Below are positions 3,762 to 34,023 of a stretch of DNA of 46,202 nucleotides, piece after piece. The position numbers and the translations under genes were made by a program. Source of the stretch: a phage; the NCBI GenBank assembly GCA_025043315.1, contig GCA_025043315.1_4324.1. The stretch is one strand, 5' to 3'. The notes below the pieces were generated by a model, which was not told the DNA's origin, ran no database searches, and saw only the letters and a list, made by a program, of their open reading frames with translations. The number at the start of each line of letters is the position of its first letter. The stretch's first letter is position 1.

Positions 3762-3804
3762 ATTATATGCCATCCGTGGCGACTGCGTTTAGCAATTCGT
3801 GCTA
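3762..3804 (-). promoter_or_regulatory. palindromic promoter module (TAGCAATTCGTGCTA 3790-3804; TATAAT at 3762-3767)
   Basis: 15-bp palindrome, 22-bp spacer, -10 hexamer, conserved leader CCACATCAACACAACGAGAG before ATG of 3543..3731. Confidence 0.6.
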
Positions 3805-4391
3805 TTTATAGAATGACTTAACAAAAGCCTCAGGTGTTACACCACGCTTGCAAGGCTTAATTAAATCCTTAATGATGAACCAGTGGAAAGTCTTCATATC
3901 AAAGACCAGTCGTTCACATGCGATCACATATTAAGTGAAGCTCATTCTTTCTTCTCCCGTTCCATCCACATTTTAGCCAGCTCGTAATAAGCTATCGCCT
4001 CCTCGACCTTTTCAGCTTCATCCTGCATTCTCTTACACCACTGGCTTGGTGATTCGTAGTTATCCATTAGTAAATTATAACCTCATCTTCTGAAAGGTAG
4101 ATATCCTCGCCATTCTTGTTCTTTACGATGTAGCAGCTACCATCATCACTCATCTCTGCGAAGAACACATCGCCACGCTGAATTAGCGCCACATAATCAC
4201 TCTCGCCAACATAAACAATCTTAATCATAGAATCACCTTACTTAAATTATCGTTCGTTAGAATGCGTTTTAGCGTCGTCTACGCCTGCCGAAATTATGTA
4301 GATAGTGGCGAAGCCTAGAGACCAAAGCAACCACGGTAGAGCCTCAACAAAAACATCGCCCATCATTAACTCCGTGTGCATATCGTTTACC

Positions 4392-4605: not shown

Positions 4606-4648
4606 ACTATAACAAATTACCCCGGTACCGTTTTATCAATTAGTGCTA
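4606..4648 (-). promoter_or_regulatory. palindromic promoter module, degenerate palindrome (TATCAATTAGTGCTA 4634-4648; TATAGT 4606-4611)
   Basis: same 22-bp spacing and leader as the other copies. Confidence 0.45.
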
Positions 4649-4798
4649 CTCGGCTACTCTATATGAATTAATATCACCACCAAGAACCAACCATTGAGCC
4701 TTTGCACCATCGTAGGTATCGTAGACTCGAACGTGCCTAACGCTGTTAAACTTGCCAGTGTAGTACGTGTGGATGTAAATCATTTCTTTGCCCCCCTA

Positions 4799-5359: not shown

Positions 5360-5402
5360 ACTATAACAAAACCCACCTGAGCGGGTTTAGCAATTTGTGC
5401 TA
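5360..5402 (-). promoter_or_regulatory. palindromic promoter module (TAGCAATTTGTGCTA 5388-5402; TATAGT 5360-5365)
   Basis: palindrome overlaps stop of the upstream gene; 22-bp spacer. Confidence 0.55.
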
Positions 5403-5660
5403 TTTACCAACCTTAATTGATTTAGACGATTCATGAATAATCTTCTGCCCGTAAAGCTCCTTAGCTTTCTGTAATGAATCAATCGAGTCATTGAGGTCTG
5501 TAAGGTAATCCTTGTGCCCACGTAAACCCATGCAAAGCATCTTCTTTATCGCGTGCTGAGTTGCTGGGTCAGATACGCGGAACGCATCAAGAACACGATA
5601 AACATCTACTGTTGTTACTGTGCCATCAATGCCAATAATTTCACGATCGTACTTACTCAT
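5400..5660 (-). CDS. hypothetical protein
   Basis: 86 aa ORF. Confidence 0.5.
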   Translation of the reverse strand: MSKYDREIIGIDGTVTTVDVYRVLDAFRVSDPATQHAIKKMLCMGLRGHKDYLTDLNDSIDSLQKAKELYGQKIIHESSKSIKVGK

Positions 5661-6099: not shown

Positions 6100-6124
6100 A
6101 TTTATTGTTTAGCAATTCGTGCTA
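6082..6124 (-). promoter_or_regulatory. palindromic promoter module (TAGCAATTCGTGCTA 6110-6124; TATGAT 6082-6087)
   Basis: 22-bp spacer; leader CCATATCAACAACGAAGAGG. Confidence 0.6.
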
Positions 6125-6499
6125 TTCACCGCTCAGGAGTGATTTAGCTTTCCGGTAGAACTCAATCGCCGCCTCCACCTCTTCTTCACTGTACCGTAAG
6201 TGGTATGGTAGTCTACTAGGGTGCTCACCATCGTAAGTTTTGAAGTTAGGTTGCCAGCTTAAATCCGTCAAGGCAGGGTTGACGTAAACCTTATCCCCAA
6301 TTAGACAGGTAACATTCATCTTATCGAGCTCTGGAATTAGCTTATCCTTAATCAATAGCATCATTCCATCGCGCCCCGCAAATGGTTTCAGCTTGCGAGC
6401 ACCTTCATATAGAGACCTGATGCCGACAACTCCTTTGCCGTTAACTCCCATTTTCCTGATGATTCTAATCAGTACACCAAGCTCATCACCATTATACAC
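6122..6499 (-). CDS. stand-alone paralog of the C-terminal domain of the 9708..11291 replication protein (GTG start)
   Basis: GKGVVGIRSLYEGARKLKPF...NVTCLIGDKVYVNPAL aligns by eye with residues ~465-525 of the 527 aa protein. Confidence 0.5.
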   Translation of the reverse strand: MYNGDELGVLIRIIRKMGVNGKGVVGIRSLYEGARKLKPFAGRDGMMLLIKDKLIPELDKMNVTCLIGDKVYVNPALTDLSWQPNFKTYDGEHPSRLPYHLRYSEEEVEAAIEFYRKAKSLLSGE

Positions 6500-6645
6500 C
6501 TCTGAGGTATCAATAGAGCCCCAAACGCCGTTGACTGTCGATACCCGTTAGCATTGATTGCAACCCGCAGTGGCGGCAGCCCATCCTGGATAGCGATATT
6601 CATAATCTGCTCGTCCGTCAGTTTATCCTCGTTAAAGTCAAACAT
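6484..6645 (-). pseudogene. N-terminal remnant of a second copy of the 9708..11291 gene, out of frame with 6122..6499
   Basis: 53-codon ORF MFDFNEDKLTDEQIMNIAIQDGLPPLRVAINANGYRQS... matches MFDFNEDKLSVEQVMAIAAADNLPPLRVAINANGYRQS of the full-length gene; same TAATG context. Confidence 0.55.
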
Positions 6646-7540: not shown

Positions 7541-7726
7541 AAATGGCTCAGCCAGAATAAAAATCAACTTGTATGGTAGTCAACCCAGCTTTCATTCACT
7601 AACTCCCCACTTCATTTCACTTTTCGCAACAATCAAAAACATCATTGCATCAGAAGCAATATTGCTGTATGCGCAATAATCATGTGAATCATTGCAATAT
7701 CTGCAACAATCCATAAATCTGACGAA

Positions 7727-7770
7727 TAGCACTTTTTGCTAAAGACATGTTAAGGTGGTGACGCTATAGT
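7727..7770 (+). promoter_or_regulatory. palindromic promoter module (TAGCACTTTTTGCTA 7727-7741; TATAGT 7765-7770)
   Basis: 23-bp spacer; leader TAGCTCATCAACAACGGGGAG before HNH gene. Confidence 0.55.
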
Positions 7771-8942: not shown

Positions 8943-9104
8943 ATGCTACTACCATCTGAGATAAATTATTACGATCTTGACACCGTCGCAGCTTACAGCG
9001 GAAAGGTCTGGCCTTGCGGTGACTGGTTTCGCGAGGACTTGCTAGAAAGCCATGAAATTATGCTCAAGGCGATAGAGAAGGCAAGAAGTAGCACTAATTG
9101 CTAA
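8943..9104 (+). CDS. hypothetical small protein (53 aa)
   Basis: ORF whose TAA lies inside the palindrome at 9089-9103. Confidence 0.4.
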   Translation: MLLPSEINYYDLDTVAAYSGKVWPCGDWFREDLLESHEIMLKAIEKARSSTNC

Positions 9105-9131
9105 AGTCCTTCGGGGCTTTTCATGTATATT
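9089..9131 (+). promoter_or_regulatory. palindromic promoter module (TAGCACTAATTGCTA 9089-9103; TATATT 9126-9131)
   Basis: 22-bp spacer; leader CTCATCGAAACGAAACAACGAAGGG. Confidence 0.6.
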
Positions 9132-9707: not shown

Positions 9708-11291
9708 ATGTTTGATTTCAACGAAGATAAGCTATCTGTTGAACAGGTTATGGCAATTGCTGCCGCAGACAACCTCCCACCCCTGCGCGTGGCTATCAAT
9801 GCTAATGGATATCGCCAGTCTCAATCATTCTGGAAGGCTCCGGTCGAGATTGATGCAGCTAATGATAAGTATCCTGTAATCTCACTAGGAAATGATATTG
9901 ATGTTGTTGGCAAGCTGTCAGCCAATATTGCTCGCTCAGTTCAGTTTCCGGAGTCTTCAGCTTATATGCACTTCCTGGGGTGTATTTCCGCTGCAATGCT
10001 GGGTCGATTTACTGTTGAGTATCATGGAACTCAGCAGCCGACTTCGCTGTACGTCGTAACGAGTCAGCCACCATCGACCGGTAAATCAGCAATTAACTCA
10101 CTCTCCATTGCTCCAATGATCGCCGAGACTGAGCGACTGAACGAGGTGCGCAAGCGTGAGCGCAAAAAGATTATGGCCAAGCTATCCGCATTATCCAAAG
10201 AGATGAAACAGGAGAAATCTCCGTCAGAGATGGCTTCACTTTTTGAAGAGAAAGAGGAGTTAGAGGAAAAACTCGAGAAACTTTGTGATATCGTATTCCC
10301 GGTATCAGATACCACACCTGAAGGTCTTGCGCGAATAAACAACCGCCAGGGCAACTTTGCGGTAATTTCTGACGAAGCGACGAGTGTTAACTCACTGCTT
10401 GGCATGACCTATGGAGATGGCTCTAAGAAAACGAACAGCGAACTTGTGCTTAAAGCATGGGATGCTGGTAACGTATCTATCGCGCGTGCGAACGCAGAGA
10501 ACAACATGAGCTTCGTTGCTATGGGTTGCATATCGGTAATTGCGCAGGATGAAACAATCAATGCCATCATGAACGCTGGGGCGCGTGGCATTGGCGTATC
10601 GGAACGTTTCCTTTTGGTCCGCGAGAAGTCATTCCTGGGCGAACGTGTATTCGTTGATGAGAATGGAGACTCAACTTACGAGCCAATTGATGATGGACTA
10701 AAGGCTGATTACTTCCGCTTAGTTCATGAGATAATGAGTGAGCAAGATGTTAAGCTGACAGTAAGCAACTCAGCGATGAAATATCTCAACCGTGCTCGTC
10801 AGGAGATGGAACCTCACCTTGCTGACGGCGGAAAGTATTCGCACACAATGTTGCGCGGCGCTCTTGGTAAGTTCGATAAGCAGGCTATCAGGATTGCAGC
10901 CGTTCTTCACACAGTTCGTAACTGGTTCAACCCAAATGGCGGTAGTCCGCAAAAGTCCAGAGAGATTGATCTCGACACCATGCAAGAGGCTGTAATTATG
11001 TTCCATGAACTGAGTAAGACTTATCTGTCATCTGCAAACGCTGCTGGGCATGCTGGCGACAATGCAGAGATGAATAAGCTGATTGATATTCTGATTAAGC
11101 AAGGTAAGAGCGGTAAAGGTGTTGTTGGTATTCGTTCCCTGTACGAAGCTGCTCGCAAGGTTAAGCCATTCGAGGCTCAGGCGGGAGTGATGACGAAGAT
11201 TAAAGATCACTTGCTGCCAATGCTTGATGAGAAAAACTACACGTGCCTGATTGGTGATAAAGTTTACATTAATCCACGACTATTGGGGTGA
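9708..11291 (+). CDS. P-loop NTPase replication protein (primase/helicase-associated), C-terminal domain duplicated at 6122..6499
   Basis: Walker A-like SQPPSTGKSA and Walker B-like FAVISDE; 527 aa. Confidence 0.6.
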   Translation: MFDFNEDKLSVEQVMAIAAADNLPPLRVAINANGYRQSQSFWKAPVEIDAANDKYPVISLGNDIDVVGKLSANIARSVQFPESSAYMHFLGCISAAMLGRFTVEYHGTQQPTSLYVVTSQPPSTGKSAINSLSIAPMIAETERLNEVRKRERKKIMAKLSALSKEMKQEKSPSEMASLFEEKEELEEKLEKLCDIVFPVSDTTPEGLARINNRQGNFAVISDEATSVNSLLGMTYGDGSKKTNSELVLKAWDAGNVSIARANAENNMSFVAMGCISVIAQDETINAIMNAGARGIGVSERFLLVREKSFLGERVFVDENGDSTYEPIDDGLKADYFRLVHEIMSEQDVKLTVSNSAMKYLNRARQEMEPHLADGGKYSHTMLRGALGKFDKQAIRIAAVLHTVRNWFNPNGGSPQKSREIDLDTMQEAVIMFHELSKTYLSSANAAGHAGDNAEMNKLIDILIKQGKSGKGVVGIRSLYEAARKVKPFEAQAGVMTKIKDHLLPMLDEKNYTCLIGDKVYINPRLLG

Positions 11292-15606: not shown

Positions 15607-15637
15607 CTTTTAAAATCGTCTTTAGCAATTAGTGCTA
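15595..15637 (-). promoter_or_regulatory. palindromic promoter module (TAGCAATTAGTGCTA 15623-15637; TATAGT 15595-15600)
   Basis: 22-bp spacer; leader TACTCCATCGAAACGAAACACAGAGAG. Confidence 0.6.
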
Positions 15638-16054
15638 TTTTGAAATCATTTCTTTGAATGCTGCAATAAAACCCTCGCGACCATAGGCCACAGCCGCGAA
15701 ACCTCCTGATTCTCTCACGCTTTTAAGGAAAGACTTCTGTTCGTTACTGACTGGACTAGCTTGTGTTTTTCCAGCTCTCTTTAGCTCTATGGCTCCAAAA
15801 GGGTACTTACCACGCAGAGATTCAGGTATCAGAAACAAGCAATCTGATACGCCCTTAAGCAATCCTTTAGCCTGGTCCTTTCTTGCCTGACCGATGCTCT
15901 TCATCGATTCATTAACCGTGTGCCAATAAACAATCTGCGGGTAGTTATACTTAACCCAATCAGAGCAAAAGATTTGTTCGTCATCCTCCTTTGGGCATGA
16001 TTTAACGGGGCCAGGGTAAAACTCAATGTAATCTTCTTTATCTGTTATGTTCAT
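15635..16054 (-). CDS. VRR-NUC domain nuclease
   Basis: PD-(D/E)XK-like GVSDCLFLIP...GAIELKRAGKTQASPVSNEQKSFL; adjacent to SF2 helicase. Confidence 0.65.
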   Translation of the reverse strand: MNITDKEDYIEFYPGPVKSCPKEDDEQIFCSDWVKYNYPQIVYWHTVNESMKSIGQARKDQAKGLLKGVSDCLFLIPESLRGKYPFGAIELKRAGKTQASPVSNEQKSFLKSVRESGGFAAVAYGREGFIAAFKEMISK

Positions 16055-18146: not shown

Positions 18147-18632
18147 ATGAATGCAGTCGACAAGCGAACCATTAACGGTAATAACGGAACCATCCGCACT
18201 GAAGACAAAAAACAACGGAAACGACCTTCAGGTTACTACGTTTTGAAAGATGAGGTAAGGGCGGGTTTACGTGCGCGGCTGGAAATTGTTCTTGATTTCT
18301 TCGGCACAAAGGCAAATATGGCAAAGCAATTAAAGGTAACACCACAGGCTGTAGAGGAATGGTTTAAGCGCGGTATGATTTCTGCGCGCGGGGCTCAACT
18401 CTCACACAACTACTACAAGCGAACAGGGGAAGGCTTTCGCGCCACATTCTGCCGACCAGATCTGCAATTCGACGGAAACGGCAAGCCTCTTACTCTACGT
18501 TGCAAAAAGCGTCACATGCTGCGTGTTGTTACTGAGGCTGAATTAGCCACCAAGCCAGAGTGTCGATCATGGCGCAAGATTAAGGAAGAGAATCGCAAAA
18601 AGCGAGAAGCAGAGACAAATAGCACGAATTGA
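18147..18632 (+). CDS. HTH DNA-binding protein (Cro/YdaS-like), candidate regulator
   Basis: HTH-like TKANMAKQLKVTPQAVEEWFKRGMIS; basic N-terminus. Confidence 0.5.
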   Translation: MNAVDKRTINGNNGTIRTEDKKQRKRPSGYYVLKDEVRAGLRARLEIVLDFFGTKANMAKQLKVTPQAVEEWFKRGMISARGAQLSHNYYKRTGEGFRATFCRPDLQFDGNGKPLTLRCKKRHMLRVVTEAELATKPECRSWRKIKEENRKKREAETNSTN

Positions 18633-18662
18633 TAAACAATGGCGCTATGCATTGTGTATAGT
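18620..18662 (+). promoter_or_regulatory. palindromic promoter module (TAGCACGAATTGATA 18620-18634; TATAGT 18657-18662)
   Basis: 22-bp spacer; palindrome overlaps stop of upstream gene. Confidence 0.55.
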
Positions 18663-23775: not shown

Positions 23776-23818
23776 ATCATACCCCACCTTTTAATTTTGT
23801 ATTTAGCAATTCGTGCTA
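23776..23818 (-). promoter_or_regulatory. palindromic promoter module (TAGCAATTCGTGCTA 23804-23818; TATGAT 23776-23781)
   Basis: 22-bp spacer; leader TACCCCATCAACAACGAACGAGG. Confidence 0.6.
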
Positions 23819-23819
23819 T

Positions 23820-24785
23820 TTAGATTTCTTTGTATTGTTTTAGAGCCCAATCAGGAACTAATAGCTCTTGCTCTGTTATGCCGTTCGAGTACCCAGGCCA
23901 AATATCCAACTCCTTGCACTTCTTGTAGGTCGCCAGCGCCTCTAAATATTGAAGCCTTCCGATTCTGAGTTGCTCATCTGTCAAGGTGTACAGCATTGGT
24001 AGATATGGCTCCACCTTCTCCTGCGCAAGCAATCCTACAACAACCTTTCGCTTCTCGCTGAATGCCTTCACAAACAGATCTCTCTGAAGAGCCATTTTTG
24101 CAAGGTATCCGTGAGAGAATGCTGACTTACCAAATCCTTCCGGGCTTGCGTCAGCTGTTGTTTTATAATCTGTGATCCGAACGACTCCATCAACAACGTC
24201 AACGTGGTCAATTCGAATCTTCACTCCGACACCAAGAATCTCACCGAATATTGATAGCTCTTTTTGTGCTGTCTCACTATTCACGATTGCATTATATGCC
24301 GGTATATTGCAAAGAACCTCACGCATAGCCACAACTTTATCGTAGTCTGCTGCGCTAACTAGCTCCTTGCCCTCTACAAGAGCCTGTGCGCTCTCCTGCT
24401 GCTCAATTAGCCATTTAACATCCCAATCCTCACCGGAGCGATACATCATCTCTACGAGCTCGATATACCCCTTCCCTGACGTGCCAGCTACGCCAACTTT
24501 TTTAAGTGCTGCCGATAATCCGGCCTGGCTTGTAATTAATCCTTCAATCGCGTCAAGGTCTGTAGCTCGAAGGTATTCTTTATCAAACATGTCACCTTCG
24601 AGGATGTACGTGTGTGACAGGGTTCCAAACTTAAGCGCCTTGCTATTATTGTTGCGCTGCTTGAACTTCCACTTAGCTGGTGAACCCTGGATAATCTCGA
24701 CAAGTGAGGAGCCTGAGATGTGGTCAGTTTCAGCGTGGTAAGCCTCGTTGCTTAGCTCCTCTCTCGTAAAAACTTTAAAAGTCAT
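23820..24785 (-). CDS. putative PD-(D/E)XK recombination exonuclease
   Basis: 321 aa; nuclease-like RIDHVDVVDGVVRITDYKTT; upstream partner of Erf. Confidence 0.5.
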   Translation of the reverse strand: MTFKVFTREELSNEAYHAETDHISGSSLVEIIQGSPAKWKFKQRNNNSKALKFGTLSHTYILEGDMFDKEYLRATDLDAIEGLITSQAGLSAALKKVGVAGTSGKGYIELVEMMYRSGEDWDVKWLIEQQESAQALVEGKELVSAADYDKVVAMREVLCNIPAYNAIVNSETAQKELSIFGEILGVGVKIRIDHVDVVDGVVRITDYKTTADASPEGFGKSAFSHGYLAKMALQRDLFVKAFSEKRKVVVGLLAQEKVEPYLPMLYTLTDEQLRIGRLQYLEALATYKKCKELDIWPGYSNGITEQELLVPDWALKQYKEI

Positions 24786-25177: not shown

Positions 25178-25524
25178 TTTTGTAACCCCACGATGATTTC
25201 GATATGCTCTTTAGTTGTCTTTTCTATTCTAATTGATTTATTTTTCCAGTCTTCACCATATGATGACTCGCATAATTTAAGAGCTATTTCGTAAGTTAAC
25301 CCAATAAAAACCGGAGCATAGCTAGGTAGTATTACGGTGTGAGCTGAGTATCTATCTATTTTCTTTCCCATTTTCGTATCTCTTTGGTTGTTTGCTTTCG
25401 ATGAGGTAACTATATATTCGCAAGTGCAGCCAGTCCAATTGGTTTCGCCAATCGTTGATTCAAACTTACGCGTGAATATTTGTAATTCCGTGTAGGCATT
25501 GCCACTTGTTACGTAAAATGGCAT
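25174..25524 (-). CDS. hypothetical protein (start uncertain)
   Basis: 116 aa ORF whose ATG lies inside conserved regulatory region B. Confidence 0.4.
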   Translation of the reverse strand: MPFYVTSGNAYTELQIFTRKFESTIGETNWTGCTCEYIVTSSKANNQRDTKMGKKIDRYSAHTVILPSYAPVFIGLTYEIALKLCESSYGEDWKNKSIRIEKTTKEHIEIIVGLQK

Positions 25525-25850
25525 CTAAGCCCAGCTATAGCTCAATGTAACCGGCGTGTATATCGTGTATATCATTTATTGCTGATGGTGTATTGGTATA
25601 GCTGCCGCACAATACTGTATAAATCCACATGATATTAAAATTATAACCGGAACACTCTATAGAAGTAGTTACATGATATACACAGTAATATATATAATAA
25701 TAATAATAAGAGTAAAATGTTGATATATATAGATATTTTAATGTAACTAATGCGTAAATTGGCGTAACAGGGCGTATATCATTTTCCGCGGATGAGATTG
25801 TATACATCGAGTTACATCGGTTACGTGTAACTGTGATTTGTGGTGAATTT
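25515..25850. promoter_or_regulatory. regulatory region B, diverged homolog of region A, with short (TA)n/(AAT)n tracts
   Basis: shared blocks with 7205-7540; GTTACG boxes; AT-rich simple repeats at 25680-25730. Confidence 0.5.
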
Positions 25851-25859
25851 GGCGATAAA

Positions 25860-25902
25860 TAGCACTAATTGCTAAAGGAATCTGACTGTCTTTAGGTATA
25901 TT
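25860..25902 (+). promoter_or_regulatory. palindromic promoter module (TAGCACTAATTGCTA 25860-25874; TATATT 25897-25902)
   Basis: 22-bp spacer. Confidence 0.55.
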
Positions 25903-26004
25903 TATGCGCATGGCGGCAATGGTGTCGTCATACAACCTGAATTTCAGGCTTAACATCAAATCATGACCCAAATTTGGGTCATGAAAAACAGAAGAGAGAT
26001 TAAA

Positions 26005-26244
26005 ATGAACTTAGCCTTACTTAATGAAGATGTAAAAATGAATAGTTATGATTTTTTGAATAATGTTGTCAACCCAGCCAGAGAGGTGGCAGGAGAGTCA
26101 AAGCTGCGTCACAACTGGTTTCTTGAAAAAATTGTGGATGAGATTGGTGCTGAAAATTTGTGCTACCGAAAATCGGTAGCGCAAAATACGAGCAACCAAA
26201 TGGCAAGGAGTCAGAAAATTGATACTGTAGATTTAAACATGTAG
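26005..26244 (+). CDS. N-terminal part of a Rha-like regulatory protein, ends at in-frame TAG
   Basis: AREVAGESKLRHNWFLEKIVDEI resembles the Rha-domain core as I recall it; start chosen at third ATG with AGAGAGATTAAA leader. Confidence 0.4.
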   Translation: MNLALLNEDVKMNSYDFLNNVVNPAREVAGESKLRHNWFLEKIVDEIGAENLCYRKSVAQNTSNQMARSQKIDTVDLNM

Positions 26245-26247
26245 CAA

Positions 26248-26673
26248 ATGCTTCTTGTTGGAATGCGTGAGTCAAAGGCAGTTCGCCTAGCGGTTCTTGA
26301 TAAGCTTAAGCAGATGCAGGCCACCATTAAAAAACAAGCAGAAGTAATCAGCCAGATGGTAAGTATTGATGAACTAAAAGAGGCGAGAATGATGCTTGGT
26401 GTAGCTAATGCGCAGAATGCACATCTTAGCCAGCGCATTGTTGCAGAGCAAAGAATAAATGAGATCTTACTCATGGATAAGAATACCGATGAAAAGCTCG
26501 ACATGCTGGCTTGTGAGGCTCGCCAGTGCTGGGTTAGCCGCTCTGATGAGATGGAGGAAAGATTTAAGTATGAAGTGCAATGCTTCGCTCTTAAAGAAAA
26601 GACGGACGCACTGACCGGATTAATTGAGAATGAGCTAGGTATTGATATTAAGCTGTTGCTCGAAAAGAAATAG
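26248..26673 (+). CDS. C-terminal part of the same Rha-like reading frame (141 aa), in frame with 26005..26244 across TAG-CAA
   Basis: same frame as upstream ORF, separated only by TAG at 26242-26244 plus CAA. Confidence 0.45.
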
Positions 26674-26713
26674 CACTAATTGCTAAACACTGGTCGCAAG
26701 GATGCGATACTAT
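26671..26713 (+). promoter_or_regulatory. palindromic promoter module (TAGCACTAATTGCTA 26671-26685; TACTAT 26708-26713)
   Basis: 22-bp spacer; leader TACTCCATCGAAACGAAACGAAC. Confidence 0.6.
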
Positions 26714-26753
26714 TACTCCATCGAAACGAAACGAACTTACTAAGGAACATAAA

Positions 26754-26999
26754 ATGACTAACTTAATCAAATCAGTAATCATCGCCGCAGCAGTAATCAT
26801 GGCAGTTGGTTGTTCTTCCGGTCCTCGCCCGGATGGTTGGTGTGCAACCCAAGCAAACGGCGTATGCGTGGCTAAGTGGGAAGGCGGTGTAGTTGTTCCG
26901 GCTGGTGAGCTTGATGTTCGCTACGCCGGAATTGAAAGCAAGGCCGGAGGCGGTTACGGTGGGTCAGTTGCAGATCATGGTTCTAAGGAGTGGAAATAA
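26754..26999 (+). CDS. small lipoprotein (candidate superinfection-exclusion protein)
   Basis: signal peptide plus lipobox MAVGC; 81 aa. Confidence 0.7.
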
Positions 27000-33223: not shown

Positions 33224-33266
33224 ATCATACTCCATCCGTGGCGACTTCGTTTAGCAATTCGTGCTA
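33224..33266 (-). promoter_or_regulatory. palindromic promoter module (TAGCAATTCGTGCTA 33252-33266; TATGAT 33224-33229)
   Basis: about 55 bp near-identical to the copy at 3762-3804. Confidence 0.6.
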
Positions 33267-33267
33267 T

Positions 33268-34023
33268 TTAGTTCTGATTCGCTTTGGACTGAAGGCTAGC
33301 CGCAGCGCATCCACCAAATGAAAGCTGATTATTCTCTCCAAATCTAAGCTTGCAACTGTTAACAGTTCCTGCGCAGAAGTCTAATGATGGATCGCTTACC
33401 GGTTTATCATCCTTGTCAAAATAACGATTACCAGCATAATCACAGCCATTACCGCTACGATACCAGCCCCTAGAAGCCCAGTAGCAAACAGACTGAACAA
33501 GTCTCGCAGGAATATAGATACCATCCATATCCATAGGGCTACTTAGCTCGAATGACGCCGTCTTGTAATCAACCTGCTTCGGTCGCTCAATGAAGTAAAC
33601 AAATCTGCGATAGTCACCATCAGCAATGCTCCCGTCTTCATTGATGTTATCTCGCGTAGTAATCCAGATGGTAACCTTAGCTTTAACAAGTCCGTTGTAT
33701 GTGCGAATCAATGCGCTGATACGCTGGTCTACGTTTGATACTGTTAGCGTCACTTTGTTGGCTTTGCCGTCAGAGGTCATATTGATACCCGAGATACCGA
33801 AAGGTCTTGGTCCATACTCTTCTCCGCGAAATGTAATCGTCTTCTCTGGTAGTGGCTCGCCATTCATCTGGGCCAGCATAATCTCTTCTGGTGTGTATGA
33901 AATGTTCTCATTGTGGAAGTTGTAAACGAGACTTCCAAAGGAGGTTCCGTCAACCTGGATTAGTGTCACAATCTCGCCAGGGAAAAGGCTTTGCAGCTGA
34001 TTTTCAAACTTTGGACTTAACAT
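33268..34023 (-). CDS. minor tail protein, lambda L-like
   Basis: start moved to ATG 34021-34023 (track TTG 34035); position between M and K. Confidence 0.75.
   Translation of the reverse strand: MLSPKFENQLQSLFPGEIVTLIQVDGTSFGSLVYNFHNENISYTPEEIMLAQMNGEPLPEKTITFRGEEYGPRPFGISGINMTSDGKANKVTLTVSNVDQRISALIRTYNGLVKAKVTIWITTRDNINEDGSIADGDYRRFVYFIERPKQVDYKTASFELSSPMDMDGIYIPARLVQSVCYWASRGWYRSGNGCDYAGNRYFDKDDKPVSDPSLDFCAGTVNSCKLRFGENNQLSFGGCAAASLQSKANQN

Follow-up and report, generated by a model that had tools for sequence, protein, structure and literature searches.

The window analysed here, a stretch of 46,202 nucleotides from an Escherichia coli assembly (contig GCA_025043315.1_4324.1), represents the entire, circularly permuted genome of a T1-like siphovirus (Drexlerviridae, Braunvirinae-like). 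A portal-like gene spans its two contig ends, and its first 25 kb align with Veterinaerplatzvirus isolates at about 87% identity over 72%. The gene of interest lies on the + strand. It begins at ATG 26005, with GAGAGA just 5′ of it, and runs for 79 codons to a TAG at 26242-26244. This 5′ fragment, codons 1-79 plus the premature TAG (26005..26244), encodes the strand, the first two helices and the β hairpin of an N-terminal domain. The TAG is followed by CAA (26245-26247), ATG 26248 and 141 codons up to a second TAG at 26671-26673, the natural stop of the gene, in a single frame throughout. The initial annotation had described two ORFs in the same frame, split only by the TAG and the CAA; its coordinates are correct, and the peptide that it quoted, AREVAGESKLRHNWFLEKIVDEI, is present in the upstream part. 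The longer ORF from 25963 is a mechanical call with 14 extra codons at the 5′ end, and a DNA alignment shows that the start codon of the orthologs corresponds to ATG 26005. The 3′ remainder (26245..26673, +) matches positions 79-219 of phrog_8235 (E 1.2e-57) and codes for the final two helices of the N-domain, with their conserved 15-letter motif, and for a long C-terminal helical hairpin. The downstream neighbour, a Cor-like superinfection-exclusion lipoprotein (26754..26999, +; PF24052, E 5.7e-38), is a separate gene, the counterpart of which is annotated as Cor in phage vB_Ec-G8.

The two ORFs are parts of one gene. The joined frame, expected initially to give about 220 aa, encodes 222 aa, and residues 11-222 cover positions 1-219 of the 219 of phrog_8235 ("anti-repressor") with E 1.2e-69. 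Taken separately, the halves match positions 1-55 and 79-219. A tblastn search found single uninterrupted copies in P818 (90.5% identity), CY1, TR2, phiA2-1, IME253 and TR3, each of them one CDS of 221-227 aa; in P818, CY1, IME253 and Veterinaerplatzvirus 12210I the CDSs are intact, colinear and 215-227 aa long. The phrog_8235 orthologs of P818 (UOX38459.1), CY1 (annotated 'KilA protein'), IME253 ('anti-repressor', YP_009789229.1), TR2, TR3 and phiA2-1 are 69-90% identical to the window protein over all 222 residues. Their position in the genome also corresponds, with the recE-side divergent region on one side and cor on the other, and they share the leader and the repeat elements of the window gene. 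They are intact single ORFs and not two separate genes, whereas the window copy carries a TAG at codon 80. With its full-length profile match and its reading frame interrupted where relatives have an uninterrupted ORF of ~215-227 aa, the window copy is a disrupted member of phrog_8235.

The comparison of alleles identifies the lesion as a G>T change at 26242, which converts the Glu80 codon to TAG (26242..26244, +). In the DNA alignment this column holds GAG in P818 and GAA in CY1, IME253 and 12210I, and every ortholog has one of these two sense codons. An intact protein, P0001, is identical to the repaired window protein at 221 of 222 positions, with Glu at position 80. The metagenomic allele that encodes it, on the two contigs L005 and L006, departs from the window sequence at only 3/669 bases, one of which is the G/T at 26242. 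Given these near-identical intact alleles, the TAG is very recent, and no other decay is found in the gene. The window copy thus shows the one-base difference from an otherwise near-identical intact allele that is expected of a recent nonsense pseudogene. Four explanations had been offered for the interruption (read-through, recent nonsense mutation, sequencing error and deliberate split), and the single intact orthologs and the 3/669 allele support the second. We consider a very recent nonsense mutation the best reading, over recoding or a designed split, with a probability of about 0.75.

The position of the stop within the protein is informative in this respect. AlphaFold models gave a pLDDT of 74 for the full-length protein and, for the N-domain alone, a pLDDT of 82 with a pTM of 0.72. 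The modelled N-module consists of a strand (11-13), two helices (14-28 and 36-47), a β hairpin (53-59/70-78) and two more helices (79-87 and from 91 on). The protein also has a long helical hairpin (91-157 and 162-211). The most conserved stretch in 40 homologs, 15 letters in which G86, S90, R94 and V97 are invariant, comes directly after codon 80. The TAG therefore stands at the start of helix 79-87, just ahead of this motif. Since it falls inside the folded N-domain and not in a linker, and since the orthologs are unsplit, a deliberate split into two genes is disfavored. Among solved structures, an hmmsearch with the N-domain profile gave only a chance match to an oligoribonuclease.

It is conceivable that the gene still functions in two parts, a 79-aa N-fragment and a 141-aa C-fragment produced by termination-reinitiation at ATG 26248, with the C-terminal helical hairpin continuing to work, for example as a partner-binding or dominant-negative form. 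ATG 26248 lies only 3 nt past the TAG, a geometry compatible with reinitiation, but it has no Shine-Dalgarno sequence in range, the nearest AAGGAG being 37 nt upstream. In two relatives with an earlier amber codon (L007 and L008, see below), reinitiation is unlikely because the stop is ~100 nt ahead of the next in-frame ATG. All five point lesions at the locus (5/5) affect the N-terminal domain and leave the C-terminal 141 codons open, although this clustering may be a detection bias. The C-terminal part is also under strong purifying selection among lineages (the window and L007 differ there by 36 nucleotides but only 3 amino acids), yet this selection is older than the lesions. The split passes through a folded domain without a linker, and no relative conserves a two-gene layout. 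We regard a functional two-part gene as very unlikely.

Read-through or codon reassignment would be expected to show a conserved stop, and either a suppressor tRNA or TAG used as a sense codon elsewhere. No ortholog or near-identical allele has the in-frame stop. The only tRNA detected by ARAGORN in the window is Arg(TCT), and no suppressor tRNA was detected there. TAG ends 10 of the 58 window genes with ends aligned to 12210I, this gene included, at the conserved C-terminus, and no other in-frame TAG occurs in the window genes compared with that phage. Of the other window genes compared with 12210I, all but two align without internal stops or frame breaks. TAG is thus an ordinary stop in this genome, and amber read-through, which had been listed first among the initial options, is disfavored.

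A leaky or suppressed amber, for which a host suppressor or near-cognate tRNA would supply enough full-length regulator, deserves separate consideration. The UAG here precedes a C, which makes for a weaker termination context in E. coli. Homologs vary at position 80 (E, D, K or G), so that Gln or another residue would probably be tolerated there. The absence of further decay in the rest of the gene is in line with such leakiness, as is a second independent lesion, in a relative, that is likewise GAG>TAG. However, the phage itself brings no suppressor tRNA, and efficient suppression would extend many proteins, given the share of genes that end in TAG. The other lesions include frameshifts and absence of the whole cassette, which no suppressor can rescue; the second nonsense codon of the window is TAA; and the stop has been kept in no ortholog. 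Sufficient full-length product from a leaky amber is therefore unlikely, although an allele described as null may really be leaky through basal or host-suppressor read-through of UAG.

The T at 26242 could also be a sequencing or assembly artefact, that is, a consensus error, for example from a low-coverage contaminant or from oxidative damage, in a phage that truly has GAG. In the TPA annotation of an E. coli assembly the two half-proteins appear as HCL7432478.1 and HCL7432479.1, and both are also present on a 46,113-bp Logan contig (ERR8651901). T1-like phages notoriously persist in E. coli cultures as contaminants or as "carried" phages (PMC8262962), which accounts for the contig of a virulent phage in the assembly of an E. 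coli isolate. As the phage is probably such a contaminant or carried phage in the isolate library, its coverage could be low. The second nonsense change of the window (GAA>TAA, 3931-3933) is likewise G>T, and G>T is a classic artefact of oxidative damage. On the other hand, substitution errors rarely reach the consensus, and the NCBI TPA and Logan assemblies, made with two assemblers though apparently from the same reads, are identical over 16.7 kb, the TAG included. The other lesions found in independent samples indicate that real knock-outs of this gene exist. A G>T signature test on the window-private substitutions was uninformative, the nearest relatives being only 81-83% identical in the flanking block. 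On balance, we judge an artefact improbable.

The window has two further possible lesions. A 47-aa ORF (3805-3945, −), conserved in 12210I (MSFTEYVIACERL...), reads MSFT*YVIACERL in the window, with GAA>TAA at codon 5 (3931-3933, −), which on the coding strand is a G>T change. A restart could occur at a GTG two codons past the TAA. The homolog of a 140-aa CDS of 12210I (6122-6645, −) occupies two frames, 6645-6523 and 6538-6230 (on to 6122), with a break at ~6530. It resembles both the N- and C-terminal ends of a 527-aa DUF3987 protein (9708-11291) and looks like a decaying partial duplicate, which 12210I shortens differently. Both lesions would fit either an accumulation of mutations in accessory genes or a process of error or damage biased to G>T.

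To return to the nonsense mutation, we propose that a single G>T substitution, from GAG for Glu80 to TAG, has very recently turned a non-essential accessory regulator gene into a null or strongly hypomorphic allele. The intact gene is a self-contained cassette that combines its own repeat/promoter element, a structured leader and the 222-aa protein. The winged-helix-like module at the N-terminus of the protein (residues ~10-105), of a kind that stands at the N-terminus of Ant/KilAC-type anti-repressor proteins, would probably bind DNA, and the long C-terminal helical hairpin would probably mediate dimerisation or partner binding. Because the stop is inside the N-terminal module, only 79 residues are translated before it. 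At the most, a share of the ribosomes would reinitiate at ATG 26248 and yield a 141-aa product without a complete N-domain. The phage tolerates the TAG because the gene is non-essential, and the loss of this presumed regulator would be either neutral or advantageous. The literature yielded no measured function for the protein in any Drexlerviridae phage.

The initial annotation had called the gene Rha-like. This holds for the position of the locus and the architecture, and perhaps for the fold, in which the match is weak, but not for the family models. The profile searches connected the halves and the joined frame with phrog_8235 from end to end and with no Rha model: PF09669 (Pfam) and TIGR02681 (NCBIfam) gave no match at E<=1 to the halves, the joined protein or P0001. 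No other Pfam or NCBIfam model matched the window protein in a meaningful way. Rha-type alleles of the same locus do match PF09669 (9/40 aligned sequences, best E 1.1e-8). Those of many sister phages (Veterinaerplatzvirus 12210I, EC3a, ESCO41, G8) encode 215 aa with a true PF09669 N-domain, and the C-terminal ~115 residues of these sister alleles are nearly identical to those of the window protein. The locus thus carries two alternative N-modules joined to one C-module. Profile-profile comparison (hhalign) of the window-type and true Rha-type N-modules gave a colinear alignment over 73 columns, which is weak (P=0.024), and the order helix-helix-hairpin-helix is colinear in both. Foldseek searches against viral models retrieved antirepressor and "Regulatory protein" models (prob 0.85-1.0, TM 0.5-0.6), and the match to the EC3a Rha-type protein was weak (E 0.11, prob 0.75). 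No significant sequence-profile match links the window protein to the founding Rha family (phi80 Rha, P22 orf201). In our reading, the protein is a modular regulator of the Rha/Ant type by architecture and context, and stands outside the Rha family by that family's own models. The rha genes of phi80 and P22 inhibit phage growth in IHF-deficient hosts (PMC4936722), and their harm in IHF mutants would offer, by analogy, a precedent for selectable loss of the window gene.

The names 'anti-repressor' and 'KilA' given to orthologs are annotations only, as neither a KilA-N nor a KilAC domain was detected in them. What connects the window protein with the Ant/KilAC-type prophage anti-repressors, such as the 'phage antirepressor KilAC domain-containing protein' of E. 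coli and Stx phages, is a common N-module without a Pfam model (MxSxDFLNxxINPAR...GE..., E down to 1e-35). This module is widespread in "Ant/KilAC"-like proteins of prophages from Enterobacteria, Pseudomonas, Aeromonas and Vibrio, in which it is fused to PF03374, PF10549, PF04383 or PF02498 domains. The Ant/KilAC proteins end in a KilAC/ANT domain, whereas the window protein ends in a helical hairpin; PF03374 matched neither the window protein nor its close orthologs, and was found only in distant homologs with the common N-module. Unlike the prophage anti-repressors, the window gene sits in a virulent T1-like phage, which has no repressor to antagonise.

We also considered, and rejected, the Pir regulator of T1 as the identity of the gene. 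Pir is encoded by orf23, between primase and helicase, and T1 is without the gene studied here. Pir is the only transcription regulator of T1 studied experimentally (PMC6737242). Its positional counterpart in the window (18147-18632, +), between the helicase and primase genes, encodes a Cro/HTH-like protein of 161 aa. This protein is a candidate binder of the repeated palindromic element.

The cassette is bounded by a perfect direct repeat of 20 nt, AAATAGCACTAATTGCTAAA. The upstream copy (25857..25876, +) forms the 5′ edge and is followed by a -10-like TATATT at 25897-25902. The downstream copy (26668..26687, +) forms the 3′ edge and overlaps the stop codon of the gene; together with TACTAT at 26708-26713 it looks like a separate predicted promoter region for the cor-like gene. 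With one copy for the broken gene and another for cor, the amber should have at most a limited polar effect on cor. The consensus of the element is AAATAGCAC[T/G]AATTGCTAAA, with the inner palindrome TAGCA-N5-TGCTA, and the window contains at least 12 copies, against 0.03 expected. Besides the two at the cassette edges, copies lie on the − strand at 3788-3807, 4632-4651, 5386-5405, 6108-6127, 15621-15640, 23802-23821 and 33250-33269, and on the + strand at 7724-7743, 9086-9105 and 18617-18636. Every copy follows the local direction of transcription, with a TATAGT/TATAAT-like hexamer ~20 nt further on, after which come a short CAUCAACAACGA..GAGAG leader and the start codon. In several cases the copy overlaps the TAG that ends the gene before it. 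T1 also carries the element, and the same direct repeat, given as 21 nt, has been described in phage TLS, where its function is debated (PMC11447400).

Between the upstream repeat and the start codon lies a structured 5′ leader of unusual length (25908..26004, +). It contains three hairpins, at 25910-25931, 25936-25948 and 25961-25984, the last a perfect 24-bp palindrome, and has an SD-like GAGAGA at ~25994-25999. Its minimum free energy is -33.7 kcal/mol (z = -4.2). The second and third hairpins are kept in CY1, IME253 and P818 through changes on both arms. A search of 25500-26800 against Rfam gave no match. Either an RNA structure or an operator, co-varying with the N-domain, may be present here. 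In the Rha-type alleles of EC3a and G8, a different single palindrome stands where the window has its leader hairpins.

The repeat element appears to act as a junction for the gain and loss of the cassette. No homolog of the gene was found in T1, where cor directly faces recE; there (L021, 29850-30378) a single repeat element stands directly ahead of cor and the cassette is absent. The same exact absence, with one repeat before cor, is found in L027 (ENA ERZ27284563) and L030 (Logan SRR3053162), at positions 1760-2500, and both contigs encode a 64-aa neighbour protein identical to that of the window. Deletion by recombination between the two flanking repeats would produce this pattern, as would a locus into which the cassette was never inserted. 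In L009, CY1 and IME253, extra cassettes have been inserted at the downstream repeat junction. The gene is a dispensable accessory cassette, absent from T1 and from some close relatives.

Phage T4 has PeSL-flanked cassettes, with which the present case can be compared as gain and loss of cassettes at repeated promoter elements. The likeness to other pseudogenes of accessory genes lies in the single-base stop in a non-essential gene, the flanking 20-nt repeat and the relatives that lack exactly the cassette. The flanking repeat here, in contrast to the PeSL of T4, is the Drexlerviridae 21-nt DR element of TLS (PMC11447400).

Inspection of the DNA upstream of truncated gene calls among close alleles revealed three more lesions at this locus. 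In L007 and L008, assemblies that may both derive from a single sample, GAG>TAG has occurred at codon 31, an invariant Glu. A run of G-A6 at codons 41-43 has lost one nucleotide in L009 and gained one in L010, the closest relative of the window in this region. The gene is intact in L005, L006 and P818. In the Rha-type allele of L025 and L031 (Logan ERR13865576 and ERR13865898, two samples; positions ~1334-1423), a 1-nt deletion turns GGAAAGGAG into GGAAGGAG at about codon 25, within the conserved TGK.H motif of the Rha domain, and leaves an N-truncated ORF of 185 aa. Where they were called at these loci, the neighbouring genes recE, erf, cor and DUF6453 have their usual lengths.

Truncated protein calls led to most of the broken relatives, so that their sampling has an ascertainment bias. 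The only unbiased sample is a set of 23 contigs anchored on the neighbouring 64-aa gene: an intact Rha-type allele is present in 18/23, the Rha-type allele with the 1-nt deletion at ~codon 25 (L025 and L031) in 2/23, and the cassette is absent from 2/23, the remaining contig (1/23) being the window's own sample. In the closest allele group, defined by at most one amino-acid difference in the N-terminal 80 residues, five distinct intact proteins stand against three independent lesions (window, L009 and L010). The amber allele of L007/L008 falls just outside this group, with V28A and V44A besides the stop. The five point lesions at the locus, the window's included, are all in the N-terminal domain. 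This clustering hints at selection for loss, but lesions late in a gene are harder to detect, and detection bias and small numbers bar firm statistics.

The leader and the N-domain have their own history. Across 25945-26275, which covers the leader hairpins and the N-domain coding part, the window, L007 and L009 are 98-99% identical. Identity falls to 83-87% over the 95 nt that precede this patch and to 91-93% over the C-terminal coding sequence, in which most differences are synonymous. With L005 and L010 added, the patch is 98-99.7% identical and the flanks 83-93%. These values suggest that a module of leader plus N-domain spread recently by recombination into diverged backbones and that the lesions would have followed afterwards.

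Taken together, the lesions and absences fit a gene whose loss is tolerated and perhaps favored in some hosts. A more specific possibility, which we put forward tentatively and think rather doubtful, is that in wild T1-like phages the N-domain is a repeated target of selection for loss, the intact protein being costly in some hosts, and that the leader-plus-N-domain module has recently been spread by recombination. The protein may, for example, trigger a host defence or abortive response, or it may poison the growth of the phage, as rha does in IHF-deficient cells. If the protein is indeed costly, the amber of the window would be one of at least five independent escape-type lesions. A literature search on the gene as a defence trigger or escape locus returned nothing relevant.

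Taken as a single event, the TAG is an ordinary knock-out, and annotation should treat both ORFs as a single, disrupted gene. A modest lead comes from the locus as a whole. In natural samples of virulent T1-like phages, this accessory regulator cassette occurs with either of two exchanged N-domain types, is deleted, or is inactivated by various small lesions, with the adjacent genes intact. Such a footprint is expected where a gene helps the phage in some hosts and harms it in others. The uncharacterised protein, with its Pfam-less N-domain common to prophage anti-repressors, is thus a candidate for the study of host range and defence triggers.

Scans of IMG/VR and JGI metagenomes gave three loci each, none informative for the N-type of the window. 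The complete genomes of E. coli contained no match to the gene, and the 79-aa fragment, used as a protein query, matched nothing but itself. The N-domain profile search showed the family to be broad and yielded no further checkable broken alleles. Three shortened products of other metagenomic alleles, P0092 (141 aa), P0094 (118 aa) and P0101 (123 aa), reflect either lesions or contig ends; P0094 and P0101 are N-terminal fragments, and P0092 begins at Met82, as does the second ORF of the window.
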